A stretch of DNA of 64,000 bases, from positions 36,554-100,553 of the forward strand of contig JBILGT010000002.1 in the NCBI GenBank assembly GCA_044350895.1, in the 5' to 3' direction. Below, piece after piece: positions 4,208 through 38,048 of this stretch (position 1 is its first letter; each line of letters begins with the position of its first letter). This DNA comes from Limisphaerales bacterium (GTDB lineage Bacteria; Patescibacteriota; Microgenomatia; UBA1400; PJMF01). The notes beneath the pieces were generated by a model. That model was given only the letters and a program-made list of their open reading frames with translations. It was not told the DNA's origin and did no database searches. The position numbers were made by a program, and so were the translations under genes.

Positions 4208-4217
4208 TCATATATCT

Positions 4218-9017: not shown

Positions 9018-9602
9018 TTATGTGCTCTCTTGCTCCAAATATAGTAATCTAAATTGCTCACGTGCTCTGAATAACTCAGATTCCACTGATTTTACAGTTT
9101 TCCCCAGTTCAGTGGCAATTTGTGCCACTTTCTGGCTATCAACGTACTTTTTGAGCAAAAGTTCTCGAGAATATTCATTCATTTTTTTGAGTGCAACTAG
9201 GACACGAGCTGAAACTTCATGAGAATCTTCCACAGGACTTGAGAGCAACAGATGTGATAAAGCAGTGGTTTGAATTGCCTTTTTGGCATACATTTTTCGA
9301 TAAAAGTCAGCAACTTCATGTTTTGCGATAGCAGACATCCACGTCCAGAGACTCGCACTACCGTTATACAGGGACAAATTTTTTAGACAGTTTAAGAAAG
9401 TCTGCTGTGTCATTTCTTCAGCATCTTGGCTATTTTCCACTCTACTTTGAATGAATCTGAGGATTTTTTTATGAAAATGGTTAAACCAGTACTCGACGGC
9501 ATCTCGATCACCGAGTTTCAAAAGCTCTACTAGTTGCATTTCACTTTGTTGGTTCATACTACAGGAAGTATACTTTATTCTAGCTACACCGTATAATATC
9601 AT
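9018..9602 (-). CDS. RNA polymerase sigma factor, sigma-70/ECF family
   Basis: Region-2-like 'DAEEMTQQTFLNCLKNL' and a region-4 HTH 'SQKVAQIATELGKTVKSVESELFRAREQFR'. The likely true start is the internal Met at 9557 (MNQQSEMQLVELLK...). Confidence 0.65.
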   Translation of the reverse strand: MILYGVARIKYTSCSMNQQSEMQLVELLKLGDRDAVEYWFNHFHKKILRFIQSRVENSQDAEEMTQQTFLNCLKNLSLYNGSASLWTWMSAIAKHEVADFYRKMYAKKAIQTTALSHLLLSSPVEDSHEVSARVLVALKKMNEYSRELLLKKYVDSQKVAQIATELGKTVKSVESELFRAREQFRLLYLEQEST

Positions 9603-9606
9603 CCAT

Positions 9607-9966
9607 ATGTTTTTTCTAGTACAAAAAGTATATGCTGCAGGCTGCTCAGATCTAGACTATGGTTCTCCCGAACTTAATTTAGGCAGAGTGCTTTGCTTGA
9701 GCGACAGCACAGCTGTTGAAGATGTCTATAAAGATCCAGCATTTCTTGTCAACTTAATTGTTAGCAATTTATTTGTTTTTGCTGGAATAATAATTTTTCT
9801 TCTTATTTTTTACGCTGGATTTAAATTTATCTCTCAAGGAACTAAGGGCAAAGAGGAAGCAAAAGGGATCATTACTGCCGCTGTGACTGGCTTAGTATTG
9901 ATGTTTGCAGCATATTGGGTCCTCCAGATTGTAAAAACATTAACGGGGACTGACGTTGCACTCTAA
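9607..9966 (+). CDS. VirB2/TrbC-like pilin-type small membrane protein, paralog 1
   Basis: TM1 (LVNLIVSNLFVFAGIIIFLLIFYAGF), loop 'SQGTKGKEEAKG', TM2 (IITAAVTGLVLMFAAYWVLQIV). A TATAAT lies 12 bp upstream. Confidence 0.5.
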   Translation: MFFLVQKVYAAGCSDLDYGSPELNLGRVLCLSDSTAVEDVYKDPAFLVNLIVSNLFVFAGIIIFLLIFYAGFKFISQGTKGKEEAKGIITAAVTGLVLMFAAYWVLQIVKTLTGTDVAL

Positions 9967-9969
9967 ATT

Positions 9970-10419
9970 ATGAAAACAAATATAGTACTCAAAACTATTA
10001 GCTATATCTATCTTTTTGCTGTTATTATCAGTGCATTTTTCTGTATCCCAGGCCTCACCTTCGCACAAACTGCTGAAGACTTAGGGGTTGGAACAATTGC
10101 AGCCCCTCCTGGCGTGGATAAATATAATGCTGCCGCACAAGCGCAAGGTGCCGATATTGCGATCGTTTACTTTATGTCGAACATGATCAAGCTCTTTACG
10201 GTAGTTGCTGGAATCTGGGTAATTTTGAATGGCATTCTTGCAGGCTACTACTTTGTGCAATCAAGTGGAGACGCAGGCACCTATGAAAAAGCCCGTAATC
10301 AAATTACTCAAAGTGCCATTGGTCTTGCAATGATTGTACTTTCATATATGTTTACTGGGCTTGTTGGTTTACTTTTCTTTGGAGATGCGGGTATATTCTT
10401 AAATCCAAGGTTAAAATAG
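9970..10419 (+). CDS. VirB2/TrbC-like pilin-type small membrane protein, paralog 2
   Basis: Signal peptide plus 'VVAGIWVILNGILAGYYFVQSSGDAGTYEKARNQITQSAIGLAMIVLSYMFTGLVGLLFFGDAG'. Confidence 0.55.
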   Translation: MKTNIVLKTISYIYLFAVIISAFFCIPGLTFAQTAEDLGVGTIAAPPGVDKYNAAAQAQGADIAIVYFMSNMIKLFTVVAGIWVILNGILAGYYFVQSSGDAGTYEKARNQITQSAIGLAMIVLSYMFTGLVGLLFFGDAGIFLNPRLK

Positions 10420-10420
10420 T

Positions 10421-10969
10421 ATGAAACAGTTTATACTCAGCATCGTTGTTGCACTCTCAGTGCTATTCTTCGTCCCTACAGTGGCGCAAGCACAATCATG
10501 TCCTAGCAACCGGACTTGTAGTGGCGGTTGTACCGCTGTGGGCCAATGTGTTGGAAACAAACGATGTGTTAGTGTACAAGGCGTTATTTACCCTGGAACA
10601 GTTGATTGTGGTTCTGCCCAACTTGGCGGAGTTAAGCCACCTCCAGCTATTACTAGTTTTAATTTTCAAACTGGCTCTGCATCAGGCAATGGCATCATCC
10701 TCTTTTTATCTAGATTGATCAATCTTTTTGTCATAGTGTGTGGAATCTGGACAATGTTTAACTTTTTATATTCTGGATACATTCTAATTTCTTCTCAGTC
10801 AGATACTAAAAATCAAAGTGAAATAAAAGATAAATTAACAATGACAGCCATTGGCTTGGCTATTATTGCCGGAGCATACATAATCGCTGGACTAATCGGT
10901 CTTATTTTCTTTGGAGATGCGGGATATATTCTCAATCCGCAGCTCGTCAGCGCACTTGATAGAGGGTAA
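10421..10969 (+). CDS. VirB2/TrbC-like pilin-type small membrane protein, paralog 3 (with Cys-rich N-terminal extension)
   Basis: Signal peptide, a CPSNRTCSGGCTAVGQCVGNKRC module, then the shared two-helix domain ending 'IGLIFFGDAGYILNPQL' (same C-terminal tail as paralog 2). Confidence 0.55.
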   Translation: MKQFILSIVVALSVLFFVPTVAQAQSCPSNRTCSGGCTAVGQCVGNKRCVSVQGVIYPGTVDCGSAQLGGVKPPPAITSFNFQTGSASGNGIILFLSRLINLFVIVCGIWTMFNFLYSGYILISSQSDTKNQSEIKDKLTMTAIGLAIIAGAYIIAGLIGLIFFGDAGYILNPQLVSALDRG

Positions 10970-11025
10970 TATGGCTGGAAGATAGACTTTCTTCTGTCAT
11001 ATGGGTATAATTACAGGCGTACATT

Positions 11026-11406
11026 ATGATGATATACATAGCACAAAAACTTACCCAGTTCGGTTCTGGTTTTGCACCAGTTGTTGATACTGCATGGACA
11101 GATGGCTCAGATACAGAAGCAGGGGTACTTACCAATTTAGAAGCATTCATTTCACAAATCTTGGGACTGATTACAGTAATTGGTAGTTTGTTCTTTGTTA
11201 TCAACTTTCTCATGGCTGCCTTGAGCTGGATCACCGCAGCAGGTGACAGCGGCAAAATTCAAAAAGCTCGCGACCAGATGATTCAATCTACGTTGGGACT
11301 TGTTATTATGGTAGGCTCTTATGCAATAATTGGACTTATTGGATCAGTGGTTGGTATCGATATCTTACAACCAGGCCAAGCATTAAAGATGTTGATCCCA
11401 AGGTAA
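11026..11406 (+). CDS. VirB2/TrbC-like pilin-type small membrane protein, paralog 4
   Basis: 'WITAAGDSGKIQKARDQMIQSTLGLVIMVGSYAIIGLIG'. Confidence 0.55.
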   Translation: MMIYIAQKLTQFGSGFAPVVDTAWTDGSDTEAGVLTNLEAFISQILGLITVIGSLFFVINFLMAALSWITAAGDSGKIQKARDQMIQSTLGLVIMVGSYAIIGLIGSVVGIDILQPGQALKMLIPR

Positions 11407-11411
11407 ATTTA

Positions 11412-11840
11412 ATGTCATTAAACAAGTTACAAAAGACCATCTCATCAGTTACAACAACTACAGCACTTTTAGTGAGTAGTTCTACTTTGGCACTCGCTCA
11501 AACAGGCATAACCAATCCAGCAATTGGCATTTATGGTAAAGACCCAAATGCGGCCAAGGCCGGCACTTCATTTGCGGGGTATGTCGCTATCATGTGGAAA
11601 GCTATGATTTCAATTGGAGCATTACTAGTTCTCTTATACTTTGTATGGGGTGCAATCGATTGGATAACAGCCGCTGGAGATAAAGGTAAAATGGAAGGTG
11701 CCCGCAATAAAATGCTCAATGCCTTTATTGGTTTACTGCTATTGGTCAGCTCATACACCATAATTGCATTCGTTGGCTGGCTATTCTTTGGAACTGAATT
11801 CAACATCTTACAACCAATATTTATATTTAATAATCCATAA
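11412..11840 (+). CDS. VirB2/TrbC-like pilin-type small membrane protein, paralog 5
   Basis: Signal peptide plus 'WITAAGDKGKMEGARNKMLNAFIGLLLLVSSY'. Confidence 0.55.
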   Translation: MSLNKLQKTISSVTTTTALLVSSSTLALAQTGITNPAIGIYGKDPNAAKAGTSFAGYVAIMWKAMISIGALLVLLYFVWGAIDWITAAGDKGKMEGARNKMLNAFIGLLLLVSSYTIIAFVGWLFFGTEFNILQPIFIFNNP

Positions 11841-11845
11841 TATTT

Positions 11846-12187
11846 ATGCCAACACCAACAAAAATAGACTTACAAGGAGGCGCAATCCTCGCACAAATTC
11901 CAGGCACTGAGAACATGGAATCGCCAAATGCCGGCTTTGCCCGTCTTATTGGGAATATTCTTGCCGCAGTCATGGTTGTTTCATTACTCCTTGTTCTCTA
12001 CTTTTTAGTAGTTGGTGCAATTGAGTGGATTACGGCAGCTGGCGATAAAGGTAAAATTGATTCAGCACGTAACAAAATGACAAATGCTGTTATCGGCATC
12101 ATAGTTTTATCTTCCGTTACCGCACTATTTGCAGCTGTACAATATTTCTTAGGTGTCAATGTACTTACATTTTCATTTACCCCGTAA
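11846..12187 (+). CDS. VirB2/TrbC-like pilin-type small membrane protein, paralog 6
   Basis: 'WITAAGDKGKIDSARNKMTNAVIGIIVLSS'. Confidence 0.55.
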   Translation: MPTPTKIDLQGGAILAQIPGTENMESPNAGFARLIGNILAAVMVVSLLLVLYFLVVGAIEWITAAGDKGKIDSARNKMTNAVIGIIVLSSVTALFAAVQYFLGVNVLTFSFTP

Positions 12188-12325
12188 GGAGCGATTGATT
12201 CGCATACTTTAGAGTCTGGGTAAATCAAACTGGTACTTGCAAGCACTAAAAGTATATTGCTAAGCTATTACTTGACGGAGAGCATATAATATAATCTAGT
12301 GTAAGATACACTTACAAGGAGCAAG

Positions 12326-12739
12326 ATGATTGGTAAATTAAACACGGCATTAGTAGCCAGTACAGTAACTGGATTTTTAAGTGCACCAATTGCATTTGCA
12401 GTGGAACCTACTTCAGGAGTTACTTCAGCAGTTGGCACAGTCACAGCAGGAACTGGATGGGCAGATAACATCGGTGGTTTAATCACTAGTGTCTTAACTA
12501 TCGTCATGGTTGTTGCTATCCTACTCGTCTTACTCTACCTCATCATGGGTGGTATCGAATGGATCACATCTGGTGGTGATAAAGGTAAAACTGAAGGTGC
12601 TCGTAACAAAATTACCTCAGCTATCATTGGTATCATCATCTTGGCAGCAGCTTATGCGCTCGTCCAACTTGTCGCCTACGTATTAGGATTTGCAAGTCTG
12701 AACGCAGCTCTCGAATCATTACCTAGAATCGGTACGTAA
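12326..12739 (+). CDS. VirB2/TrbC-like pilin-type small membrane protein, paralog 7
   Basis: AAGGAG RBS 8 bp upstream of the ATG and a TATAAT around 12286. Signal peptide plus 'WITSGGDKGKTEGARNKITSAIIGIIILAAAYALVQLVAYVLGFASLNAAL'. Confidence 0.6.
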   Translation: MIGKLNTALVASTVTGFLSAPIAFAVEPTSGVTSAVGTVTAGTGWADNIGGLITSVLTIVMVVAILLVLLYLIMGGIEWITSGGDKGKTEGARNKITSAIIGIIILAAAYALVQLVAYVLGFASLNAALESLPRIGT

Positions 12740-13179
12740 TAACAATAATAATGAATTTAATTAAAAGGAGTTACATGTTAAATAAAATTCAAAAAGCAGC
12801 AGCAGCAACTGCGGGAGTCGCAGCCAGCTTACTAACCACTGCAGTAGCATACGCTAAAGATACCAGTGCTATAGGCACAGTCACACCAGGTACAGGTTGG
12901 GCAGATAACATCGGTGTTTTAATCACCAGTGTCCTCACCATCGTCATGGTTGTTGCTATCTTGCTCGTCTTACTTTACCTCATCATGGGTGGTATCGAAT
13001 GGATCACATCTGGTGGTGACAAAGGTAAAACTGAAGGTGCTCGTAACAAAATTACTTCAGCTATCATCGGTATTATCATCTTGGCCGCATCATATGCACT
13101 CGTCCAACTTGTCGCCTACGTCTTAGGATTTGCAAGTCTTAATGCCGCCCTGCTCTCATTGCCTCAAATCGGTAAGTAA
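12433..13179 (+). repeat. tandem duplication (~300 bp units, ~440 bp period) of pilin-type gene bodies
   Basis: 12461-12739 and 12901-13179 align base-for-base with only scattered substitutions (e.g. gcagataacatcggtg[g/t]tttaatcac...). Confidence 0.8.
12751..13179 (+). CDS. VirB2/TrbC-like pilin-type small membrane protein, paralog 8 (near-identical tandem copy of paralog 7)
   Basis: The probable true start is 12775 (AAAGGAG RBS just upstream; MLNKIQKAAAATAGVAASLLTTAVAYA signal peptide). The mature domain is about 90% identical at DNA level to paralog 7. Confidence 0.6.
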   Translation: MNLIKRSYMLNKIQKAAAATAGVAASLLTTAVAYAKDTSAIGTVTPGTGWADNIGVLITSVLTIVMVVAILLVLLYLIMGGIEWITSGGDKGKTEGARNKITSAIIGIIILAASYALVQLVAYVLGFASLNAALLSLPQIGK

Positions 13180-13202
13180 TATTTTTAAAATTAGAATTTC
13201 AG

Positions 13203-13230
13203 AAACCCCCATCTTGTATGGGGGTTTTTG
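13203..13230 (+). terminator. rho-independent terminator after pilin paralog 8
   Basis: AAACCCCCA-tcttgta-TGGGGGTTT followed by a T-run. Confidence 0.7.
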
Positions 13231-13266
13231 GTATATTAGGTGTGTTTGTTACACATTTGACCCACT

Positions 13267-13821
13267 TTGATGTATAATGTAAGTCTAATGAAAAAAGCCG
13301 TTATATCACTTGTATTAGTACTCATATTTAATTTTTTAGCTGTATTTAGCAATCCCATAGTATTCGCAGCAGACGAGGTAAAATTAGTCAAAGATGGTAG
13401 TACCTACTATCTGAGTACTGAAGGTTCTGCATCCACCACGCGCAGTGGACAAACCTATCGTCTTGTTCCTGTTGAGCAAACCGCCGCAACCAGTGCTGCA
13501 AAAACAGCATCTCGTTCAGCAGTTGTTCCGCCTCCTGGATATGTAGGTAATATTGGAGAGCTTATCAGCTTCTTACTTAAGTTGGTAATGATTGTGGCAA
13601 TTTTACTTATTCTTCTCGCCTTTATCACCGCTGGTTTTGAGTGGATTACATCTGGAGGTGACAAAGGTAAAACTGAAAGTGCCCGAAACCGCATTGTCGC
13701 AGCTTTTGTTGGTGTACTCATCTTATCTGCCGCATACGCATTAACACTACTCGTTGCCTATGTTCTTGGTTTTGATAGTATTGATGATGTTTTTGGCAGC
13801 ATTAAGCGAATTAATCCATAG
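13267..13821 (+). CDS. VirB2/TrbC-like pilin-type small membrane protein, paralog 9
   Basis: Probable start 13288 (MKKAVISLVLVLIFNFLAVFSNPIVFA). 'WITSGGDKGKTESARNRIVAAFVGVLILSAAYALTLLVAYVLGF'. Confidence 0.55.
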   Translation: MMYNVSLMKKAVISLVLVLIFNFLAVFSNPIVFAADEVKLVKDGSTYYLSTEGSASTTRSGQTYRLVPVEQTAATSAAKTASRSAVVPPPGYVGNIGELISFLLKLVMIVAILLILLAFITAGFEWITSGGDKGKTESARNRIVAAFVGVLILSAAYALTLLVAYVLGFDSIDDVFGSIKRINP

Positions 13822-13844
13822 GTCACAAACTCTACATTCACTTC

Positions 13845-14372
13845 TTGCTGTTCTATCAGGTATACTATAGAGATTCAAAATCTATGCGCCGTAACACATT
13901 TACCTATCAAGTAATTTCATTTTTTAGAGCTGCAATCTTCAGTGTCGCACTACTTGCAAACGTCGCTGGCCCAGTCTACGCCCAAACCCAGGCTTGGTCA
14001 GGTGTGTGTGTCGGCCCAGCTCAGATTAATGCAGCAACGAAAGCCAATGATGTTGCTACTATCCAAGGCGTTCAGTGTCTACTTGCCAATGTATTTACTG
14101 TGATCATAACAATCGTCGGTCTGGCAGGATTTGTCATGTTTATTGTAGGTGCCTTTAGATATTTGGTTTCTGGCTCAAATAGCAAGGGTATTGAAGCCGC
14201 CAAAAATACCATTCAATACATGGTGATCGGCATTATTGTAACGCTCAGTGGTTTCATCATTCTGAATATGATTTCTTCATTCACCGGAATCGACGTCATT
14301 ACTCGATTTGTTATTCCAAGTTCAGATCGTGGTACTTCTGCAGATGACTATCCAATTCCAGTTGGAATGTAA
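13845..14372 (+). CDS. VirB2/TrbC-like pilin-type small membrane protein, paralog 10 (divergent)
   Basis: Probable start 13884 (MRRNTF...signal peptide). 'IVGLAGFVMFIVGAFRYLVSGSNSKGIEAAKNTIQYMVIGIIVTLSGFIILNMI'. Confidence 0.45.
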   Translation: MLFYQVYYRDSKSMRRNTFTYQVISFFRAAIFSVALLANVAGPVYAQTQAWSGVCVGPAQINAATKANDVATIQGVQCLLANVFTVIITIVGLAGFVMFIVGAFRYLVSGSNSKGIEAAKNTIQYMVIGIIVTLSGFIILNMISSFTGIDVITRFVIPSSDRGTSADDYPIPVGM

Positions 14373-19614: not shown

Positions 19615-19728
19615 TCCCTATAACTATGTATATTTGTTATCACACTATACCAATCGTTGTCTACATACAAAAAAAATTCCCAAGTTACTTTACCCTTTGC
19701 ATCATACTTTTGGTATACTACACACATC

Positions 19729-21426
19729 ATGTTGAAACGGATACTTCTGACCGTGTTTTCTTTGTTTGTGCTCAACACAAGTATTGTGAGTGCTCAAGGT
19801 ACAGCACCTACCCCAACTCCTGGTGCTGATGCAGACAACAATGGGTACGTTGATAACCCATACAGTTATAATATAACCACCGATGAGTATGCCTCATATA
19901 AAAAAGCCACTCAAAATTGTGAGACCCCTTCCCTAGAATGTTTGGTCAAGTACACTACTCGCTTTGCAGCTATGGAGTGGGCACTCGATATCGCCTATGG
20001 TCAAAAAATTGCTGACAACGGGCGCAGTGGCGGCGTCTTTGCAGGAGTAATGGGACTTGTAAATGAGATGTACAAGAATCCTGCGGCACACACAGCTACC
20101 TATGTGGCTGACGTGATGCACACAGCTGGTTTTGCTCCAAAAGCATATGCGCAAGGTCTGGGTTTTGCGTCCCTTGATCCAATTTTGAACTTATGGAAAG
20201 TGTTCAGAAATGTAGCGTACTTCTTCTTCATTATCATTTTCATTTTCTTAGGCTTTATGATTATGCTGCGCAAAAAGATCAGTGGACAGGCAGCAGTCAC
20301 TGCTCAGCAAGCAATTCCATCAGTCATTATTAGTTTGATTCTCGTCACTTTTTCCTATGCCATTGCTGGTTTCATGATTGATTTAATGTATGTACTGATG
20401 TTCCTTATTGTGGGCGTATTTGAAGGAATAACATCGAGTATCGAAGTGGCTGGACAACAAATGACTGGCGCGACCCTAGTTAACCTCAACTTTATTGGAT
20501 TGTTCGCATTTCTTTTTAAAGCAAATACTGATGCCCAGGCAATTGGAACTAACATAAACATTTCATCAAGTATTATTGAAGCAGCGGCAGATAGCTCTAA
20601 TGTGGCAACATACTTAGGTGGTGTTATCGGTGGATTGACACTCACCTTGATCATCACGGTTGCTGTTTTAATTGGTTCTGTCAGATTATTCTTTGAATTA
20701 CTCAAATCATATGCATCCATTATTATGTATGTTGTCACTAGTCCATTAGTATTAATGTTTGGAGCACTTCCTGGTAACGATGTATTTGGGAAATGGATCA
20801 AAGGAATTATTGGAAACCTTCTTGCCTTCCCCACAGTTTTATTAGTGTTGATAATTTTCATTGAATTTACCCATCAAGGTGGTAGCGCTGGCGGCGCAAC
20901 TGCAGGATTCATGCCACCATTTTTAATTGGAAATGGCAGTGCTGCAAACATGATTGGGCCACTACTGGGTCTTGCTATTATCTTAGGACTTCCAGACATT
21001 GTGAAAGAAGTTAAAAAAGCGGCAGGTGCTGGAGAAGGTGGAATTGGCAGCATGCTTGCTGGCTTTGCTACAAGTAATTTGAAGTCAGGAATTAGATACT
21101 CGCCGATTACAGGGCGCGCGGCTGGATATATTGGCGGTGCTGGAGAAGGAATAGCTAGAGCGGCGTATAACGGTGACTTCTTGACTAGACCAGGTGTTGC
21201 TTGGGACAAAATCAAAGGTTATGCTGGAGTACGAGGTGGGCAAGGTGCTGACTTCGGAAAGAGATTCGCGTCTGGTGCAGAACAGGTTTTTGAAAACAAA
21301 TGGATGGATCCTAATGCCTGGGAAAATGTCATTTTGTCTCAAGGTAGAGAGAAAAAAGCTGCAGAAATCAAGGCGCGTCTTGAAAAACTTGACAAACTCG
21401 GTCGTACCCCAGGCAGAAGATCTTAA
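19729..21426 (+). CDS. VirB6/TrbL-like polytopic membrane protein with Gly-rich C-terminal tail
   Basis: Probable start 19729 (MLKRILLTVFSLFVLNTSIVSAQ). About 130 aa extracellular, then about 8 TM helices and a G/A-rich cytoplasmic tail. The topology matches VirB6; there is no sequence-specific motif. Confidence 0.45.
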   Translation: MLKRILLTVFSLFVLNTSIVSAQGTAPTPTPGADADNNGYVDNPYSYNITTDEYASYKKATQNCETPSLECLVKYTTRFAAMEWALDIAYGQKIADNGRSGGVFAGVMGLVNEMYKNPAAHTATYVADVMHTAGFAPKAYAQGLGFASLDPILNLWKVFRNVAYFFFIIIFIFLGFMIMLRKKISGQAAVTAQQAIPSVIISLILVTFSYAIAGFMIDLMYVLMFLIVGVFEGITSSIEVAGQQMTGATLVNLNFIGLFAFLFKANTDAQAIGTNINISSSIIEAAADSSNVATYLGGVIGGLTLTLIITVAVLIGSVRLFFELLKSYASIIMYVVTSPLVLMFGALPGNDVFGKWIKGIIGNLLAFPTVLLVLIIFIEFTHQGGSAGGATAGFMPPFLIGNGSAANMIGPLLGLAIILGLPDIVKEVKKAAGAGEGGIGSMLAGFATSNLKSGIRYSPITGRAAGYIGGAGEGIARAAYNGDFLTRPGVAWDKIKGYAGVRGGQGADFGKRFASGAEQVFENKWMDPNAWENVILSQGREKKAAEIKARLEKLDKLGRTPGRRS

Positions 21427-27534: not shown

Positions 27535-27605
27535 TTTGAGTCAACTAGTACTACCACTAATACTTCACTACACAGAATGCGGGTGTTCCAGGTATAATTA
27601 TCGGT

Positions 27606-30600
27606 ATGGCATCCGATACTCAACCTCGGCAGATTGTTTTTGTGGCTGGAACTACTACTTCAGTAGATGAGTATCCTGTTGATGTAGACCACATAAAACA
27701 AATTGGTTTTTACTCCTCTGATGATTTTATTCAGTTTAAAGATCTCTTTTTAGAGCTCATCAATTCTCTCCATCTTAATGATCAAGGTATTTACGAACTA
27801 TATCCCGGTCAAGAAATCAAACAGATTCGCATTACATATCAAAAGGATGGCGGAAATTTTCAAAAAGTTTCACTTCGCACTACCGATGGATTACCTGGTG
27901 ACCCAGGAATACCAGAAAAACGGGAACGACTTTTCTTCTGTGACTTTGTCTATATTTCACTCGGCATCGCCAAAATCCTTCGAAAGAACTATCCCAAATC
28001 TACTGAAACACTGAAAGACTATACCGACAGCTTCGATATTGAGAAACAAATTAAAGAATGGGGAGCTGCTGGAGAGAAGCAGTATCTTTCCCAACGAGCA
28101 CTGCAGTGGGAAACTCCAGCAATCAAAGAGTTGCTTACTGAAATTTTTACGGCGTTTCAAGATATCACTGTAGAACTTAAAAAAGAGCCTGTCCAAGAAC
28201 CACCAGCTGAGGAATCAGGTGAACGACGCGCTACAGAAGCTGATGCTCTACTTGTCTTACCAGAAGTTTTGACTGCAGGAGTCACTCCAACTGTAGATGG
28301 TGGTGGCGATACAGCTGATACTACTAGCACACCTACTAGCACAAGAACTGAATCAATTGAAGATGAATCAAGCTACGTAACAGCGCGACAATTTGTTTTG
28401 GGGTTTGCGAGAACAACATTGATTGACGATGTCTTGAGGCGCAGTGGTCTAGATCCTGATTCTTTACCGCCTGAACTTCGAGGGCGATATGATGAGCTCT
28501 TCAGAATTCTTGAAACAGAACTAACTATTGTGCTGAGAAATCTTTCTGATGAAGAACGAGAACGACTTGCTTCTGGCGATGTGAGTCAAAAAATTTCCGT
28601 CTACTATTTACTACTCCGCCAATTATCAGGTAGTCCATCAGCACGTTTTTATGAGTTGTTTGTAGAATTTTATGAAACAGAAGTCACACATCTAGTTGAG
28701 AACCAACAAACAGAAGCGGCCCAACAACTTGTGACCGCAGTAACTGCCCAGTTTAGCGAAGTAGCACAAGAAATTCCTGAGCTTCAAAGAATTCATGATA
28801 ATTTACTAGCCTGGGAGCGTGAAATTTTGAGTGCAGCTCCAGTTGCAGCAACAACTGCTGAGACTGATGATGAAATCGAAACACCAGCTACTATTGTAGA
28901 AGCAACTGATGAAGTTGAAATACAGATCTCTCGCCTCCCCGATCCGCCAGTTATCATTCCAACGTTCCAAGCGCAAGTCAGTGCGCTTCCTCAAGTCCAA
29001 CAACTTACACAAAACGAGCAGGCCAGCATCCCCAATCGTTCTGGCCACGTTATTTGGGGAGCAATGGCTGAACTATTTTCAGAGGAAGATCTTCGTCGAA
29101 ATAATATTCCACCAGAGCTTTTTAACGCTGTTTCTCAGACTGCTTATGAATACCTCAATGGACTTTCTGCGCAGGAACTTAAAAAACTTGCAAAATCACC
29201 AAGTAGTTTAATTCGTCATATAAAAAATGTTTCTGTCAGACTACAAACTGATGCTGTTTTTAGTGAAACATACGGACAATACAAGTTATCCTATGCTACA
29301 CCAGCAATTAATCGTACCGAGCGAATTGAAGTTGAGACACAGTGGGCTTCTGAGAATTTGAAATACGAACTTTTCAGTGCCCACGACATTACGACATCAT
29401 TACTCAACCAATCTGCAAAATTAACCAGTGAGTATCGTGATGTTGAACAGAATCTTGAAGCAAAAGTTTATGGTATTTTCCTTACATTTAGTACTGATTA
29501 TCTCCAACTTTTATACTTCAATCCCAACGAGCGACGTACCTTAATCATTCGAATACAAAACACACTCAATGCTGATCCTCAGTTTTTAAGAGAATTAAGT
29601 GAGTTTTACAACGAACTAATTGTCTATTTTGCTGAACAACAAAGACTTGAGGAACGTGAAGACCTTGTTGAGAGTTTAAAAAGTACTAATCACTCATTTT
29701 TACAAGAAGAAGGCACTTTTCGCTATATTGTCAGTGATGTTCAACTATCAGATTCACACAAATTATTTATTGAGCAGTTAAAAAAGAGCTTAAACACTGA
29801 CTCCCCGCCAATCTTGCAAAACACTGCAAATGTGCTCGACGCCCTGATCATTGCACATGGAATCGAAGAAACTAACCGTCTTATTCAAGGGGTAAGTCCA
29901 CAACTACTAGAAATGACGTTTGGATTACCCACAGGGATCATTACTGATGACAACCATCGGTCGATTAGAGAAATTTTGGGTAACTACATAACTGTTCGTG
30001 TTTTCAACCTTGCACCAGGTGAAATTGCCGATCACAGAGCCCTATTAGTACCAGGTCAGACTACTATTCCTACAAATGCCACTAGTTTGCAGAAACACTT
30101 GGGACCAGTACATAATCTTGCAAAAATAATTACTGAAGATGGTTCTGAAAAAACGACTCTTGCACTACAAGGCGGAGTTAAGAAAAGAATTGATGCATTA
30201 GAAAAGGTTTTGGGACAAAAGTGGAGAAACTTAGGACTTGAGGAACGTGCAGCAGTTTACTTGTACTTTGATAAACCGTTTGATGCTTCACTTAAGCAAC
30301 GTCTAAAAAGTAAGTCAGCAGATTTGGAAGCTGACAAGCATATTTTAGGCGTCTTCATAGAATTTGCAGGTTTTAACGATCGATTATTGCCAGAGCTTGT
30401 CACTGATGCTCGGCTTAATGGATTTCAAAGATTAACTGGTGGAATCCCTGTTGAGACTAAATCGGGTGATGATATTACTGAGTTTTACAAAATCACCCGT
30501 CAAGCTGAAATACTTGAGCTTGAAGTTTCACTACTCGTACTAGACGAACTTTCAGCATTAGAGCGGGAACAACTTGCAGCACAGTACCAGATGTCTGCTG

Positions 30601-32447
30601 CGCAGCTTGAAGCTGCTTACCTCACCGCAATCACTACCAATCAAGGAATGCACTCACTTCCCGGGCCAGATGAGATCACACAAGTTGGAGGTGATCAACA
30701 ACCCGCCCAGCCTGGACAAAACTTGCCTGAGAGTACTACCAGAAGCCCACTCAGAGAGCGACTGAAAAATGGACTCAGAAAAAAAGCCACAGGAGAAATA
30801 ACTAAGAGACTTGGTGCAGCAACTGCCGAAAAAGCCCTTTTTGGTCTTGGAGGCAAACTGGCTGGTTTGGCATCTGGGGTTGGTGCTGCAATTGCTGCAG
30901 CTGCATTGATTAAGGACGTTCTCACTGAACTTTGGAATAACGAGGGCTTACGAAATCTACTCGCTGGGGCATTAACTGTCGGTTCAGCAATTTTGCTTAA
31001 TATTCTTGGAAATGTGGCGGGACTTTTAACTTTTGCTGCAATAAGTTTTGTGGGAGGATTTTCTATCCCCGCTCTCTTAGCTGGATTAGCTGCTGGTCAA
31101 GCAGCAGCCATGGCAGCACCTTGGGCACGCTGGTTTTCACAACCACGCACACCACCAAACCCATTTGGTTTCTCAACTGGTAGTGAGCAGTCAGCATCAG
31201 GAACTCCATCATTAGCTCAAATGCGTGGAAAAGCTCCTGGGGCGACTCCCCAATCGTCCATTTCACCTACTCCAGAATCAACCACAGCGACTGCAAATAG
31301 TGGAGTAACACCAGATGGTTCAAATGCTTCTGTTTCTGCTACAACCCAATATAGTACAACTTCAACAACAGCCGCTACTGCTTCTGGATTGTCTCAACTT
31401 GCTGCTATACCTATTGCTATTCTGGCTCCAACAATGGGAATTTTCACCGTTTTCATATCAACAATATTGGTTGTCACTGTTATTGCAGGAGCATTTTTAG
31501 TACCAGTTCCTACAAAACCAAATTCTCGCAAGGTAATTGATGGACTTGGACAACAGTCCAGTTCCAAATACGTCACTATCACAAAAACTCCTTCAATTGG
31601 AGCTACAAAAGGAGAAATTCAAAATAGAACAGATGTTCCTGTTACGTACACAATTACTGTTGAACCAAAGCCAGGATATTCAATAAAAGTTACTGGCGTA
31701 AAAGATGAATTTTCTGGAATTGGTGGGCAAACAACAGACCTGCAATCAAAACTTGATTTTTCAAAATTCCCCAGTGAACCAATCAAGGACTCTTCATTTT
31801 CAACAAGCTATACGGTCAATACAGGCACCAATTTGATTGATGCACTTATAATGAATGCTGTTACAGCAACCTTTGATGTATACGATTACACTGGGTACGT
31901 AATTGAAACGGGTGAAACATATACCGCAACAGCAACTATTTATATTGGTAATCCAAAAGTAGGCTGTTGGCCAACTAGTGGTGGTGTATGGCAACTGCCT
32001 GGTGGTAGCTTCAGTCATAGCAGATTGGATGCATACGACATTGGAAATGAAATTGGAACTCCTGTGTATGCGCCATTCCCTGGAGAAGTATGTGATAAAG
32101 GATATGACACTGCAGCAAGCGGTGGATATGGGCTCCACGCCAGTTTGAAGTTCAACCTAGGTGGCGGAGATCTCGTCCTATTTTTTGGTCACTTTGTTAA
32201 AAGTCCAAAAGATTTAATTGAAGGACTTGATGCCCGCGGATGTAAGACTGTTAATGCTGGAACACTCATAGGACTGATGGATGACACAGGTTTTTCCACA
32301 GCATCTCACTTACATTACGAACTGAGACCAAATACAATTGGGGTGAAGCTCAAAGATTTGCATCCAGATGGTCAACAGGTTATTAATTCATTCAACAGTG
32401 GAAAAAGGCCAGTGATCGTCCGAGACTGTTTTGGAGGAACAAAATAA
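27606..32447 (+). CDS. giant (1613 aa) membrane protein: large cytoplasmic N-terminal region, Gly/Ala-zipper TM segments, extracellular C-terminal M23 (LytM) peptidase domain
   Basis: C-terminus 'HSRLDAYDIGNEIGTPVYAPFPGEV...GGYGLHASLKF...GTLIGLMDDTGFSTASHLHYELRP' is the M23 signature (HxxxD...HxH). TM cluster 'GLASGVGAAIAAAAL...ALTVGSAILLNILGNVAGLLTFAAISFVGGFSIPALLAGLAAGQAAAMAA' and 'IAILAPTMGIFTVFISTILVVTVIAGAFLV'. Confidence 0.65.
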   Translation: MASDTQPRQIVFVAGTTTSVDEYPVDVDHIKQIGFYSSDDFIQFKDLFLELINSLHLNDQGIYELYPGQEIKQIRITYQKDGGNFQKVSLRTTDGLPGDPGIPEKRERLFFCDFVYISLGIAKILRKNYPKSTETLKDYTDSFDIEKQIKEWGAAGEKQYLSQRALQWETPAIKELLTEIFTAFQDITVELKKEPVQEPPAEESGERRATEADALLVLPEVLTAGVTPTVDGGGDTADTTSTPTSTRTESIEDESSYVTARQFVLGFARTTLIDDVLRRSGLDPDSLPPELRGRYDELFRILETELTIVLRNLSDEERERLASGDVSQKISVYYLLLRQLSGSPSARFYELFVEFYETEVTHLVENQQTEAAQQLVTAVTAQFSEVAQEIPELQRIHDNLLAWEREILSAAPVAATTAETDDEIETPATIVEATDEVEIQISRLPDPPVIIPTFQAQVSALPQVQQLTQNEQASIPNRSGHVIWGAMAELFSEEDLRRNNIPPELFNAVSQTAYEYLNGLSAQELKKLAKSPSSLIRHIKNVSVRLQTDAVFSETYGQYKLSYATPAINRTERIEVETQWASENLKYELFSAHDITTSLLNQSAKLTSEYRDVEQNLEAKVYGIFLTFSTDYLQLLYFNPNERRTLIIRIQNTLNADPQFLRELSEFYNELIVYFAEQQRLEEREDLVESLKSTNHSFLQEEGTFRYIVSDVQLSDSHKLFIEQLKKSLNTDSPPILQNTANVLDALIIAHGIEETNRLIQGVSPQLLEMTFGLPTGIITDDNHRSIREILGNYITVRVFNLAPGEIADHRALLVPGQTTIPTNATSLQKHLGPVHNLAKIITEDGSEKTTLALQGGVKKRIDALEKVLGQKWRNLGLEERAAVYLYFDKPFDASLKQRLKSKSADLEADKHILGVFIEFAGFNDRLLPELVTDARLNGFQRLTGGIPVETKSGDDITEFYKITRQAEILELEVSLLVLDELSALEREQLAAQYQMSAAQLEAAYLTAITTNQGMHSLPGPDEITQVGGDQQPAQPGQNLPESTTRSPLRERLKNGLRKKATGEITKRLGAATAEKALFGLGGKLAGLASGVGAAIAAAALIKDVLTELWNNEGLRNLLAGALTVGSAILLNILGNVAGLLTFAAISFVGGFSIPALLAGLAAGQAAAMAAPWARWFSQPRTPPNPFGFSTGSEQSASGTPSLAQMRGKAPGATPQSSISPTPESTTATANSGVTPDGSNASVSATTQYSTTSTTAATASGLSQLAAIPIAILAPTMGIFTVFISTILVVTVIAGAFLVPVPTKPNSRKVIDGLGQQSSSKYVTITKTPSIGATKGEIQNRTDVPVTYTITVEPKPGYSIKVTGVKDEFSGIGGQTTDLQSKLDFSKFPSEPIKDSSFSTSYTVNTGTNLIDALIMNAVTATFDVYDYTGYVIETGETYTATATIYIGNPKVGCWPTSGGVWQLPGGSFSHSRLDAYDIGNEIGTPVYAPFPGEVCDKGYDTAASGGYGLHASLKFNLGGGDLVLFFGHFVKSPKDLIEGLDARGCKTVNAGTLIGLMDDTGFSTASHLHYELRPNTIGVKLKDLHPDGQQVINSFNSGKRPVIVRDCFGGTK

Positions 32448-33451
32448 TGGAATACGTTATTCAAGAGCAACCCACTCAACAGTCCCCCAAATGGCTTCCA
32501 CGACTGGTTGTTATTGGCGTCATTGTCCTGGCTGTAGGATACTTGTTTCGTTGGCTCACTCCAGACGCCGCCCCCGCTCAGCCACTTTCTCAGTCGAACT
32601 ACGATAATTCACAAAGCACTTTTGAAAATATGGTGTTCACGGGTACTGCACCAGCAATTCCCAGCAAACTACCTGTTGCAACAGCAACTGAAGTGAAGCG
32701 AGTTAATCAGGAAGTGGAACTCACTCTTATTTCCAAACACCGACTGCAAGGTTTTGAAAAGTATACTGGAATCTGGATTGGACCTGAATACAACCTCACC
32801 CGAACAAGTAGTCCTGAACTATACGTTTTAACAAAAAAAGCCGTGGAAGATGCCACAGCTCTCGAAAGTGGTATTTCCACTGAGCAAGCGGTACGAAGTG
32901 CCACCAATTATGTATCAGAAGTTTTTAAGAATGAAAAGTTCGTTTCATTTCCCGATAGAATCCGTTATTTTGAAATTGGTGATCATCCACATCCTGAAAT
33001 AACAGAATCAGAAGAAAATGCAAATACTATCGAAATTTCTTTTGGCTATAAATACGGTCCCTACCCTGTTTTTTTTGACAAGGACTATACTTTTCCCGTC
33101 ACAATCATTGTTAATTCTGAATATGAGATACAAAAGATGACATTCCAACCATATTTTATGCAGTTTCAAGAAGGTCAAAACTTTTCAACGGTTACTATTC
33201 AGCAAGCACTCGGGAACATTATGGATGGAAAAGGAGCGCTCATTAAAAGTACCTACGACGGACACGGAAACCCATTATTGAGTGACATAACTAAAGGCAG
33301 TTTAAGTACTGTCTATGTTGAATATCGAGTTGATTCCGATTCAAAAACACTACTGCCCTACTATCGCTTTACTGGTCAACTGGAAAATAACGAAGGAATC
33401 ACCTTTTATGGTGAAGTGGTAACGCCAGCCATTCAAACAGAACAACAGTAA
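32447..33451 (+). CDS. membrane-anchored (N-terminal TM) extracytoplasmic protein; candidate VirB8/TcpC-like component
   Basis: ATG overlaps the stop of the upstream gene. TM 'LPRLVVIGVIVLAVGYLF', then a ~290-aa soluble domain. The assignment is by size, topology and position only. Confidence 0.35.
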   Translation: MEYVIQEQPTQQSPKWLPRLVVIGVIVLAVGYLFRWLTPDAAPAQPLSQSNYDNSQSTFENMVFTGTAPAIPSKLPVATATEVKRVNQEVELTLISKHRLQGFEKYTGIWIGPEYNLTRTSSPELYVLTKKAVEDATALESGISTEQAVRSATNYVSEVFKNEKFVSFPDRIRYFEIGDHPHPEITESEENANTIEISFGYKYGPYPVFFDKDYTFPVTIIVNSEYEIQKMTFQPYFMQFQEGQNFSTVTIQQALGNIMDGKGALIKSTYDGHGNPLLSDITKGSLSTVYVEYRVDSDSKTLLPYYRFTGQLENNEGITFYGEVVTPAIQTEQQ

Positions 33452-35984: not shown

Positions 35985-38048
35985 ATGCCCAGTTTATCGT
36001 CGTTACTTCCAACGCTTCCGTTTCCATTTGGCCAAAAGAAAAAGCCTGAGAATTCGCCATCACCAGAGGAGCTGCAGGAACAGAAAAACTTGGAAAAGTT
36101 ACAACAGTTTTCTCGAGGCCTAGTTACTATCCAAGATATCATTGCTCCTGAAGCTATTGAGGTTGATTTTACGTATCAGAAAATCAACTCTACCTATACT
36201 AGAACTCTGTTTGTAGCTGGCTATCCCCGAACTGTCCCAGCCAACTGGCTCGCGCCACTCATCAACTACCCACATCAGATTACAACTTCAATGTTTATCT
36301 TTCCGGTAGATTCAGCTGAGATTCTCGATAACCTCAAACGCAAAATCACTGAAATGGAAGCTGAAATTCAATCAGATTTACGTGCAGGTAAGATTTCAAA
36401 CATTAATACCGAAGTTAAACTAGAAGACGCACGATTCATTCGCGAAGAACTAGCAAAAGGTGCGGAGCGGTTTTATCAATTTGGTCTGTATGTCACTATT
36501 CAAGCCAAAGATAAAGAAGAACTCGATAAGATCACTAAAAGCATTCAATCAACACTCGGTTCTCTCTTAATCGTATCCAAGAAAGCTACGCTGCAAATGG
36601 ATGAGGGATTTAAGACAACGTTACCAATGGGAGTTGATAAGTTGCTCGTCACTCGAAATATGGATACCACGTCACTCGCAACAACATTCCCGTTTACTTC
36701 ATCTGAACTTACGATGGAAACAGGCATTATGTACGGCATTAATGAGCATAATGACTCGCTCGTTATCTTTGACCGTTTCAAGATGGAAAACGCCAACATG
36801 GTTATCTTTGCTAAGTCAGGTGCTGGAAAATCTTACACCGTCAAACTAGAGATTTTGCGCCAGCTTATGTTTGGTGCTGAAGTGATTGTTATGGACCCTG
36901 AACATGAGTATGAAGATATGTCTGTAGCCGTAGCTGGAACGTACATTAATTTTACTTTTAATTCTGAAACAAAGATCAACCCTTTTGACCTCGCCAATCT
37001 CTATGAGGAAGGTGAAAATGAACTTGGGCAAAAAATTATTTCATTACATGGTCTTCTCAAAGTTATGTTGGGTGATATGACACCACAACAAGATGCTTTA
37101 CTCGACCGCGCCTTGGTAGCAGCTTATAAAGCTAAAGGCATTACTCCAGATCCAGCAACACAAGTCAACGAACCACCACTCATGGAAGATGTCTATAAAG
37201 CTTTGATTGGTATGGAAAATCGAGATGCTGATGATATTTCAGCCAGACTAGAAAAATTTATCACAGGTTCATTCCGAGGAATTTTCGATCAAAAATCAAA
37301 CATTGATATTAAAAGCCAATTAACGGTCTTTTCAGTTAAAGAAATGGAAGAAGAGATGCGTCCAATTGCGATGTACATCATCTTGGACTTTATCTGGACT
37401 CGTATTCGCAAAGACCTCAAGAAGCGCCTTCTTATTATTGATGAGGCCTGGTACTTTATGAAGCATCCTGATTCAGCTTCATTTATCTACTCAATGGTAA
37501 AGCGTGCTCGTAAATATTACTTGGGTATTACCACCATCACGCAAGATGTTGAAGACTTTTTGCACACAGATTACGGTAAAGCAATTGTGACAAACGCTTC
37601 CATCCAGTTTTTGATGAAGCAGTCTACAGCGTCAATTCCGGTTCTTGCAGAAACGTTCTATCTTTCACAAGGTGAACGACAACTGCTCGTCACAGCAGAT
37701 GTTGGTGAAGGAATTTTCTTTGCAGGGCAAAATCACGTTGCGCTTCGTGTTGTGGCTAGTGAAGAAGAACACACCTTAATTACAACCAACCCTGAAGAAG
37801 TACTACAAAACCGCCGTGTTGCAGAACAAACCAGAATTCAAGCTGCAACTGATTTGGCTGAGAAAAAACCATCATATCCGATGCCACCACGACAGCCTGC
37901 TCAAAGAGAACCAGCTGCACAAGCTGCAATGCCTGCCGTCTTAGTCAAAACAGCTGATACAACTTCTGCTGCTGCGACTGGTCGACCACAGTACATGCCA
38001 GATTCAATTGATAATTACAAACCACCTTCTAAACCAATCAAACAATAG
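35985..38048 (+). CDS. virB4: type IV secretion ATPase VirB4 (Gram-positive TcpF/PrgJ/TraE-like)
   Basis: N-terminal 'IAPEAIEVDFTYQKINSTYTRTLFVAGYPRTVPANWLAPL...SMFIFP', Walker A 'FAKSGAGKSYT', Walker B 'LLIIDEAWYFM'. 687 aa. Confidence 0.8.
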   Translation: MPSLSSLLPTLPFPFGQKKKPENSPSPEELQEQKNLEKLQQFSRGLVTIQDIIAPEAIEVDFTYQKINSTYTRTLFVAGYPRTVPANWLAPLINYPHQITTSMFIFPVDSAEILDNLKRKITEMEAEIQSDLRAGKISNINTEVKLEDARFIREELAKGAERFYQFGLYVTIQAKDKEELDKITKSIQSTLGSLLIVSKKATLQMDEGFKTTLPMGVDKLLVTRNMDTTSLATTFPFTSSELTMETGIMYGINEHNDSLVIFDRFKMENANMVIFAKSGAGKSYTVKLEILRQLMFGAEVIVMDPEHEYEDMSVAVAGTYINFTFNSETKINPFDLANLYEEGENELGQKIISLHGLLKVMLGDMTPQQDALLDRALVAAYKAKGITPDPATQVNEPPLMEDVYKALIGMENRDADDISARLEKFITGSFRGIFDQKSNIDIKSQLTVFSVKEMEEEMRPIAMYIILDFIWTRIRKDLKKRLLIIDEAWYFMKHPDSASFIYSMVKRARKYYLGITTITQDVEDFLHTDYGKAIVTNASIQFLMKQSTASIPVLAETFYLSQGERQLLVTADVGEGIFFAGQNHVALRVVASEEEHTLITTNPEEVLQNRRVAEQTRIQAATDLAEKKPSYPMPPRQPAQREPAAQAAMPAVLVKTADTTSAAATGRPQYMPDSIDNYKPPSKPIKQ

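Follow-up and report, generated by a model that had tools for sequence, protein, structure and literature searches.

What opens the cell wall for Patescibacteria's type IV secretion system (T4SS)? The system is essential in S. epibionticum, the one species in which it has been tested (PMC10633639), it lacks a relaxase, and both its substrate and its wall-opening factor are undefined (PMC10633639, PMC12102498). It has been described as MPF_FATA-like, with pilin arrays and, in Microgenomatia, a location near dnaA; VirB6 is 'scarce' in Microgenomatia, where equivalents of VirB1 are likewise reported as lacking or rare, and most classes show no VirB1 linked to virB4 (PMC12102498). The question is raised here by a stretch of 64,000 nucleotides, hereafter the window, from a Microgenomatia-type Patescibacterium (assembly GCA_044350895.1, contig JBILGT010000002.1, positions 36,554 to 100,553 of the forward strand). 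Its virB4 operon begins with the gene for a 1613-residue membrane protein, hereafter the giant, which ends in an M23 peptidase domain. With a probability of roughly one half, we read the giant as a membrane-tethered peptidoglycan endopeptidase integrated into a chromosomal, monoderm-type (MPF_FATA-like) T4SS, that is, a non-homologous analogue of VirB1 and PrgK, which would give the candidate phyla radiation (CPR) T4SS a concrete predicted wall-active component.

As envisaged from the sequence, the acidic, multi-domain N-terminus of about 1,080 residues would remain cytoplasmic and probably dock to the VirB4/TrsD platform, and three to five Gly/Ala-rich helices would anchor the protein in the membrane. 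A spacer rich in Ser, Thr and Pro and a β-sandwich stalk would then project a disulfide-stabilised, zinc-dependent M23 endopeptidase outside the cell, where it would cleave peptidoglycan at its peptide cross-links close to the machine and thereby clear a way through the wall for the T4SS or its pilus. The product of the next gene, p334, would bind or control the enzyme as a module-specific binding, regulatory or inhibitory subunit. The wall opened by the epibiont may be its own or that of its host.

The giant heads a T4SS operon next to dnaA

The open reading frame of the giant runs uninterrupted from ATG to TAA with no longer alternative, and its product is identical to the public gene call P0001 in the JGI and NCBI assemblies, so that the gene reported in a preliminary description of this DNA, generated from the sequence alone, is genuine. 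Also as described there, it lies upstream of a gene for a VirB4-like ATPase. It is the first gene of a co-directional block comprising the giant, p334, a PrgI-like protein, a TrsD-like protein and VirB4, in which gaps do not exceed 61 nucleotides, the start of p334 overlaps the stop of the giant (TAATG), and no intergenic plus-strand terminator was seen. The best sigma-70-like promoter match of the 26.0-39.8 kb region ends 8 nucleotides 5' of the giant's ATG. On the 3' side, VirB4 is followed by dnaA (38152), dnaN (39944) and then yidC; on the other side of the giant lie genes for riboflavin kinase, an EamA transporter, a second, soluble giant of 1,560 residues on the minus strand, and p589. 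The locus is chromosomal and oriC-proximal, the GC content of the window is uniform (about 0.38-0.45), and the arrangement matches the published description of Patescibacteria T4SSs (PMC12102498).

The TrsD-like protein of 412 residues matches the N-terminal domain of Mycoplasma and Clostridial VirB4 families; hence, the N-domain of VirB4 apparently has a gene of its own, immediately upstream of that for the ATPase.

An M23 domain with a complete but displaced set of candidate ligands

The C-terminal M23 domain is recognized by Pfam Peptidase_M23 (PF01551) over residues 1476-1577, its score of 36.7 bits exceeding the gathering threshold of 28.7, which upholds the assignment made in the preliminary description. 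It is the sole Pfam domain of the protein; neither SLT/lysozyme nor CHAP/NlpC is among its matches. A family profile built from 17 full-length relatives matched M23 crystal structures, including 9gy1 (E=5e-13), EnpA, NMB0315, Csd, ShyA and lysostaphin. Foldseek, queried with an AlphaFold2 (AF2) model of residues 1250-1613, returned ShyA, EnpA, lysostaphin, LytM and StM23 with E values of 1e-5 to 1e-3 and a probability of 1.0; the mean predicted local distance difference test score (pLDDT) of this model is 57.6, with 56-68 for the M23 part and 80-90 for the preceding β-sandwich.

Candidate catalytic residues can be assigned from conservation across 28 positional orthologues that bear M23. One Asp is invariant among them, D1478 (28/28), the second D of DAYDIG, which aligns without gaps to the zinc-ligand Asp of lysostaphin and 9gy1, and it is accompanied by H1471 (25/28), H1529 (28/28), H1568 (28/28) and H1570 (27/28). 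The fold and the residues D1478, H1529 and H1568-x-H1570 are thus shared with lysostaphin, LytM, ShyA, EnpA and StM23. While the HLH motif noticed earlier (H1568/H1570) is conserved in the family, the 'clear HxxxD' that was reported with it is coincidental: it joined H1471 to D1475 through SRL, but D1475 is not conserved. Because the invariant D1478 is the residue aligned with the known zinc ligand, the motif reads Hx6D; the canonical position four residues before the Asp is Leu in the giant, and H1471 stands seven residues before it. In a set of 43 family members, His and Asp stand 4 to 24 residues apart, most often 7, and no more than two members have the canonical 4. The domain therefore appears to retain every candidate active-site residue, the first two ligands being separated by an insertion of variable length. 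In M23A enzymes, LasA among them, the first His and the Asp are likewise far apart, and the Hx6D spacing need not abolish activity.

Besides this spacing, the domain departs from canonical M23 in two ways. It has four extra Cys conserved in the family (C1454, C1496, C1546 and C1608), which probably form two disulfides, and it carries a GCWPTxGxIxQxP extension at its N-terminal side that connects it to the β-sandwich. The latter ends in a GNPxxGC junction, common to relatives with an M23-type tail and to relatives with the HExxH-type tail described below.

Membrane topology

No signal peptide was found in the giant. Its Gly/Ala-rich, charge-free hydrophobic segments, correctly noted in the preliminary description, lie at residues 1085-1102, 1117-1172 and 1261-1303; AF2 confidence is low across these regions. 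Three lines of evidence favor a topology with the N-terminus inside and the C-terminus outside. Cys occurs at 1.37 per 100 residues in the C-terminal module versus 0.054 in the N-terminal part of 94 family members, a 25-fold difference, and the Cys count of the C-terminal module is even in 95% of them, in an organism whose exported proteins are Cys-rich. Lys and Arg in the 20 residues before the first transmembrane (TM) segment average 3.94, versus 1.68 after the last, the N-side flank being the richer one in 77 of the 94 members and the poorer one in nine. Finally, the tails that replace M23 in relatives are all extracytoplasmic enzyme types. Since Cys pairs, Lys/Arg bias and tail types agree, this orientation is likely. 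The depletion of Cys in the N-terminal part was also considered as a sign of export and rejected, as the cytoplasmic VirB4 and TrsD-like proteins are likewise Cys-free.

These results bear on two statements made earlier. That the M23 domain is extracellular is favored by the same Cys statistics, Lys/Arg bias and tail types, but the check by counting TM segments failed to confirm it, giving odd and even numbers almost alike (50 versus 44). That the protein has a large cytoplasmic N-terminal region holds as far as its size and its lack of secretion are concerned, whereas its placement in the cytoplasm is only likely, given the Lys/Arg bias and the Cys pattern.

Nearly all members, whatever their tail type, carry an (S/G)AFLxxxP motif where the last hydrophobic segment exits the membrane (window 31488-31514, residues ~1295-1303). 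A membrane-exit signal, a processing site and an interaction site are candidates for its role.

N-terminal domains without relatives

AlphaFold prediction of the N-terminal region with 19 sequences gave a mean pLDDT of 66. Confident units (pLDDT about 75-90) at residues 22-193, 251-412, 450-700, 705-803 and 860-943 are separated by disordered acidic linkers, so that the region is predicted to be a string of globular domains rather than a continuous coiled coil. For the domains of these roughly 1,000 residues, no sequence or structural relatives were found, and self-BLAST of the giant disclosed no internal repeats. Iterative searches among 35 orthologues recovered residues 565-1080 in 14, residues 260-565 in seven, and residues 1-260 in none; D1, the first domain, had no family or fold match and no jackhmmer hit in any of the 35. 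D3 and D4 form the conserved core of the N-terminal region.

A small, rapidly diverging family

Retrieval of VirB4-anchored loci, with one genome per GTDB species, yielded 52 species loci, all from metagenome-assembled genomes of Patescibacteria (Pacebacteria, Microgenomates and Woesebacteria), 35 of them with full-length giants. More than 50 genomes share the same order, which consists of the giant (1035-1611 residues), an anchored protein of 190-380 residues, a PrgI-like protein of ~390 residues, the TrsD-like protein, VirB4 and DnaA; the order is also found beside dnaA in loci L001 and L002 and in the independent contigs L056-L058. An exhaustive HMMER search of 1.84 billion representatives, with residues 260-1459 as the query and M23 left out on purpose, gave 72 relatives, 18 of them at E<=1e-30 and nearly all 1,200-1,800 residues long. 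A word-indexed homologue search returned two hits with the whole protein and six with a C-terminal profile, being swamped by generic M23 and low-complexity words. The giant family is thus small and restricted to Patescibacteria.

Within the block, the giant is by far the fastest-evolving gene. Identities to the same 15 loci are 68-86% for VirB4, 52-71% for DnaA, 50-76% for the TrsD-like protein and 38-60% for the PrgI-like protein, compared with 29-64% for M23, 30-46% for the β-domain and 23-39% for p334. The N-terminal 1,080 residues of the giant are detectable by tblastn in only 3 of the 15 loci, namely L004 (26%, covering 85% of the query), L005 (23%, covering 34%) and L008 (a short stretch of 3%).

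A swappable tail and a partner that changes with it

The enzymatic tail varies among relatives. By Pfam, 26 of 36 syntenic giants end in M23, one in CHAP, and three carry an extra NAGPA domain; across the 72 representatives, roughly 40 have M23 and 23 a HExxH domain. CHAP/NlpC-like tails occur in P0072 and L040, where the CHAP Cys/His pair is kept. The HExxH group has a tail of ~190 residues with an invariant HExxH...ExxxE and four conserved Cys. Because the HExxH module gave zincin matches below threshold only (CapP 0.011, myroilysin 0.06, and lethal-factor-like proteases), this tail is regarded as an undescribed family of putative zincins. All the alternatives to M23 (CHAP, NAGPA and the HExxH zincin) are hydrolases. 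M23 and HExxH tails join a shared chassis of TM segments and β-domain at the same GNPxxGC junction, and they are interleaved on the VirB4 tree, with L007 (HExxH) sister to L008 (M23), and L016 (HExxH) sister to L010/L012 (M23); this patchy distribution implies several independent exchanges.

The gene following the giant changes with the tail. All 32 M23-type giants are followed by a protein of 320-380 residues homologous to p334 over its full length; all nine HExxH-type giants, two of them from independent contigs, by mutually homologous proteins of 193-216 residues; and both CHAP-type giants by proteins of 234 residues that are 50% identical to each other. The variant tails of L041 and L042 have singleton partners. 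Partners of different types share the N-terminal membrane anchor only, their ectodomains being unrelated. Fisher's test for the association of tail and partner gives p=2.9e-9, with no phylogenetic correction; among relatives, the tail and the gene that follows it are swapped jointly. BLASTP detected no similarity of p334 to PrgL (VirB8-like), and profiles of the partner families found no match in the PDB. The preliminary description had missed the extreme divergence, the swappable tail and the co-varying downstream partner, which are the most informative features of the giant.

Two details of the tails may be added. The HExxH domain of L001:13448-14542 and its relatives follows the pattern GNPxxGCFEF...LLC...YGGWAP...EYTLxHELGHIIDxRN...CxTYP...C...ExFAE, in which the two downstream Glu are invariant. 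The giants of L005, L009 and L043 (1371-1419 residues) have an extra C-terminal extension of ~290 residues after M23; these are presumably the members with NAGPA (phosphodiester glycosidase), which would give them a two-enzyme tail.

Assembly factor or weapon

Several observations weigh against an assembly-type endopeptidase. PrgK-type enzymes have 300-870 residues, an N-terminal anchor and SLT/lysozyme plus CHAP/NlpC domains, whereas the giant places 1,080 residues before a central TM cluster and has no sequence or profile similarity to PrgK (hhalign probability 0.1%). Its first zinc-ligand His is spaced non-canonically, and the predicted M23 activity is accordingly not guaranteed. The number of TM passes is four or five in the giant (about three to five), only two hydrophobic segments occur in the L024-L032 clade, and crude counting rules assign an odd number to 50 and an even number to 44 of the 94 family members. 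Fast divergence, recurrent tail swaps and a co-varying partner are, moreover, to be expected of a conflict system rather than of a factor with a housekeeping role in assembly. Two contrasting hypotheses follow, one of a factor acting on the cell's own wall during assembly and the other of a host-directed weapon with immunity. The latter is the main rival, tentative but serious: the swappable hydrolase would degrade the wall or envelope proteins of the host at the contact site, the giant being either surface-displayed or translocated, with its helices entering the target membrane like those of T5 Pb2 or of podophage ejection proteins, and p334 would be the immunity protein that guards the producer. 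It fits the exchange of tails on a conserved chassis with a patchy distribution on the VirB4 tree, the strict correspondence of the ectodomain at the p334 position with the tail (32/32 M23, 9/9 HExxH and 2/2 CHAP), and the rapid evolution of the giant within its block. The even number of segments in the L024-L032 clade would put N-terminus and tail on the same side, as in an exported substrate. Xanthomonas T4SSs have wall-hydrolase effectors and immunity proteins. Antibacterial T4SSs have a precedent in that genus (PMC8740702), the relaxase-less Patescibacteria T4SS is thought to be a protein exporter (PMC10633639, PMC12102498), and phage ejection or tape-measure proteins pair helical regions with M23 (PMC12002296). 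Effectors, however, usually vary in presence and location, while the giant gene is universal, fixed in position and first in a core structural operon, and its Lys/Arg-rich juxtamembrane stretch and Cys-free N-terminus look like those of cytoplasmic T4SS parts; its fixed position and its cytoplasmic-looking N-terminus argue against a free effector. Furthermore, no known T4SS secretion signal was identified in the giant, and p334 might just as well be a subunit with a structural (VirB8-like) or regulatory role. If the effector/immunity reading were true, the giant would be a host-breaching tool of Microgenomatia episymbionts, with a tail type that tracks host wall chemistry.

The endopeptidase reading has also to be weighed against proposals that take the domain, the membrane segments or the overall layout as the guide. 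The M23 domain might be a catalytically inactive LytM-type regulator or scaffold, like EnvC, NlpD or the LytM domain of PrgK, given that the canonical HxxxD is absent, the His-Asp spacing ranges from 4 to 24, the Pfam score of 36.7 bits is modest, and Foldseek also matches the degenerate LytM domains of EnvC and DipM. This is improbable, as degenerate LytM factors lose active-site residues of which four of the five are invariant here and the remaining one, H1471, is kept in 25 of 28, and as the alternative tails keep their catalytic motifs (the invariant HExxH...E and the CHAP Cys/His pair). It is just as improbable that the giant supplies the Microgenomatia T4SS with its 'missing' VirB6-like channel subunit in the form of a fusion with a hydrolase. 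The scarcity of VirB6 in this class (PMC12102498), the polytopic nature of the giant and its place, like that of prgH, upstream of the genes for the PrgI-like protein and VirB4 speak for such a fusion; yet there is no similarity to PrgH (hhalign 0.1%), no Pfam TrbL/VirB6 match at E<=1, and only three to five passes, a range that just reaches the minimum of five to six TM helices expected of such a subunit, and p589, with ~8 TM segments and an N-terminal ectodomain, is the better VirB6-like candidate. A prophage tape-measure protein or phage remnant, which large size, a helical N-terminus, hydrophobic segments and a C-terminal M23 would bring to mind, is as good as refuted by the surroundings of the gene: no phage genes lie near the giant, whose neighbors are riboflavin kinase, EamA, T4SS genes, dnaA and dnaN. 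Its position is kept in more than 50 genomes, the GC content is uniform, and the N-terminus is multi-domain. The match to the tape-measure family phrog_10030 is limited to the M23 module (residues 1471-1574), and the likeness to tape-measure proteins suggested in the preliminary description, facing a globular N-terminus, does not extend beyond that module.

Comparison with known systems

Wall hydrolases linked to T4SSs are a known kind of protein. Like PrgK (pCF10), TraG (pIP501), CwlT (ICEBs1) and TcpG (pCW3), the giant is encoded in a T4SS operon near VirB3-like and VirB4 genes and is membrane-anchored, with a hydrolase that is presumed to lie outside. A LytM/M23-type domain is present in PrgK too, and CHAP, which PrgK and TraG possess, occurs in some orthologues of the giant. 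The parallel to PrgK/TraG-type hydrolases drawn in the preliminary description stands for operon linkage and M23 and falls for homology, for which hhalign gave a probability of 0.1% with pCF10 PrgK and the same value with PrgH. The giant differs from PrgK-type enzymes in its size, its novel, probably cytoplasmic domains, its central TM cluster, its β-sandwich stalk, its non-canonical M23 domain with probable disulfides, and the cassette of a single swappable tail and a co-varying partner gene.

A likeness in organization is offered by the Xanthomonas X-Tfe/X-Tfi pairs and by polymorphic toxins, in which a variable C-terminal enzyme, wall hydrolases included, sits on a conserved chassis and the downstream gene changes along with it; unlike X-Tfe, the giant is without an XVIPCD-type signal, is polytopic and belongs to the core structural operon of a monoderm-type T4SS. 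The tape measure Pb2 of phage T5 and gp28 of cyanophage A4 (PDB 9k2v) resemble it in having a large, mostly helical N-terminus followed by an M23-type hydrolase, and in hydrophobic segments that are believed to build a conduit across the envelope (PMC12002296). In contrast to them, the giant is chromosomal, T4SS-linked and has a globular multi-domain N-terminus, the similarity being confined to M23. The T4SS of S. epibionticum likewise has a pilin array, no relaxase, and wall-hydrolase genes linked to virB4 (PMC10633639, PMC12102498). Compared by description, Saccharibacteria have separate peptidase and lysozyme genes downstream of virB4, whereas the giant is an upstream polytopic fusion with a modular tail.

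No description of the giant was found in targeted literature searches or in the dedicated survey of Patescibacteria T4SSs. The family brings with it several new objects, including the HExxH zincin family, a non-canonical M23 subfamily and about 1,000 residues of domains without structural relatives. Tail type, should it correlate with the wall chemistry of the host, could be of use in predicting the hosts of uncultured CPR bacteria.

Other genes of the wider locus

The features of the locus are collected in Table 1.

Table 1. Positions of the giant, its parts and its neighbors in the window
Feature	Position	Strand	Details and evidence
Sigma-70-like promoter match	27569..27598	+	TACACA-18-TATAAT, 10/12; consensus match alone
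Giant open reading frame, 1613 aa	27606..32447	+	Stop codon within range; open reading frame scan, public gene call
D1, aa 22-193	27669..28184	+	Alpha/beta, pLDDT 80-90; AF2
Acidic T/S/P-rich disordered linker, aa 194-250	28185..28355	+	AF2, composition
D2, aa 251-412	28356..28841	+	All-alpha, pLDDT about 80-90; AF2; homologous in 7/35 orthologues
D3 and D4, aa 450-803	28953..30014	+	All-alpha, pLDDT 76-88; AF2
D5, aa 860-1016	30183..30653	+	Alpha, moderate confidence; AF2
K/R-rich juxtamembrane stretch, aa 1046-1083	30741..30854	+	Predicted cytoplasmic by positive-inside rule
First Gly/Ala-rich TM cluster, aa 1084-1176	30855..31133	+	Segment of 18 aa and uncharged block of 56 aa; 3 passes probable
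S/T/P-rich (51%) low-complexity spacer, aa 1177-1260	31134..31385	+	
Final uncharged hydrophobic block, aa 1261-1303	31386..31514	+	1 or 2 passes; AF2: single helix 1278-1298
Beta-sandwich 'stalk' domain, aa 1304-1452	31515..31961	+	pLDDT 80-90; AF2, alignments
M23 metallopeptidase domain, aa 1453-1613	31962..32444	+	Pfam, PDB profile, Foldseek, alignment
Active-site codons	H1471 32016-18, D1478 32037-39, H1529 32190-92, H1568 32307-09, H1570 32313-15	+	
p334, membrane-anchored partner	32447..33451	+	TM aa 20-38 and ~295-aa ectodomain
PrgI/VirB3-like membrane protein, 396 aa	33494..34684	+	With CarboxypepD_reg domain
TrsD-like protein, 412 aa	34685..35923	+	Resembles VirB4 N-terminal domain
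VirB4-like T4SS ATPase	35985..38048	+	P-loop_TraG 1.7e-21
Array of 10 T4SS-pilin (PF18895) genes	9607..14372	+	Same system
Secreted protein, 1408 aa	14460-18686	+	Signal peptide, 29 Cys; directly after pilin array
p589, polytopic (~8 TM)	19657..21426	+	Signal-anchor-like N-terminus, ~150-aa N-terminal ectodomain

The 1408-residue secreted protein bears on the claim that the window encodes an SLT enzyme at 14.4 kb. Searches of Pfam (E<=5), PHROGs, NCBIfam and sequences of the PDB gave it no hit, SLT or other, so that none of these libraries supports the claim; it carries GPNEPD...YITETGP motifs, which we take to suggest a clan GH-A glycosidase. Other wall-related genes are found at 1003-2784 (-) and 55374-57212 (-), for a protein that combines a SpoIID domain with a PcsB-like coiled coil and for a VanW/PG_binding_4 protein. 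The window holds further predicted wall-active proteins, but not at 14.4 kb.

p589 has a weak NCBIfam match to the conjugal-transfer family MMCAP2_0566 of a Mycoplasma integrative and conjugative element (E=0.003) and is a plausible candidate for a VirB6-like subunit. The second giant (21515-26197, -) has 1,560 residues and no TM segment; it is acidic and helical, with internal repeats (...AL..P..NPY...), and gave no family hit. It was considered as a paralogue of the N-terminus of the M23 giant and rejected (hhalign 0.3%). In L001, L056 and L057, too, the giant has large minus-strand open reading frames upstream of it.

The pilin array is transcribed divergently from a gene of the extracytoplasmic function-type sigma-70 family (9018-9602, -). 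At 2912-5534 (+), two proteins of 431 and 445 residues have a C-terminal T4SS-pilin domain and 13 and 30 Cys, respectively; they are candidates for pilus-tip or minor pilins whose large heads would be rich in disulfides. No relaxase was seen in the window. A VirD4-like coupling ATPase (62204-63898, -), with TrwB_AAD_bind and TraG-D_C domains, is encoded ~24 kb away from virB4, even though a coupling protein is often said to be absent from Patescibacteria T4SSs; beside it lies a RadA-like gene (60728-62110).

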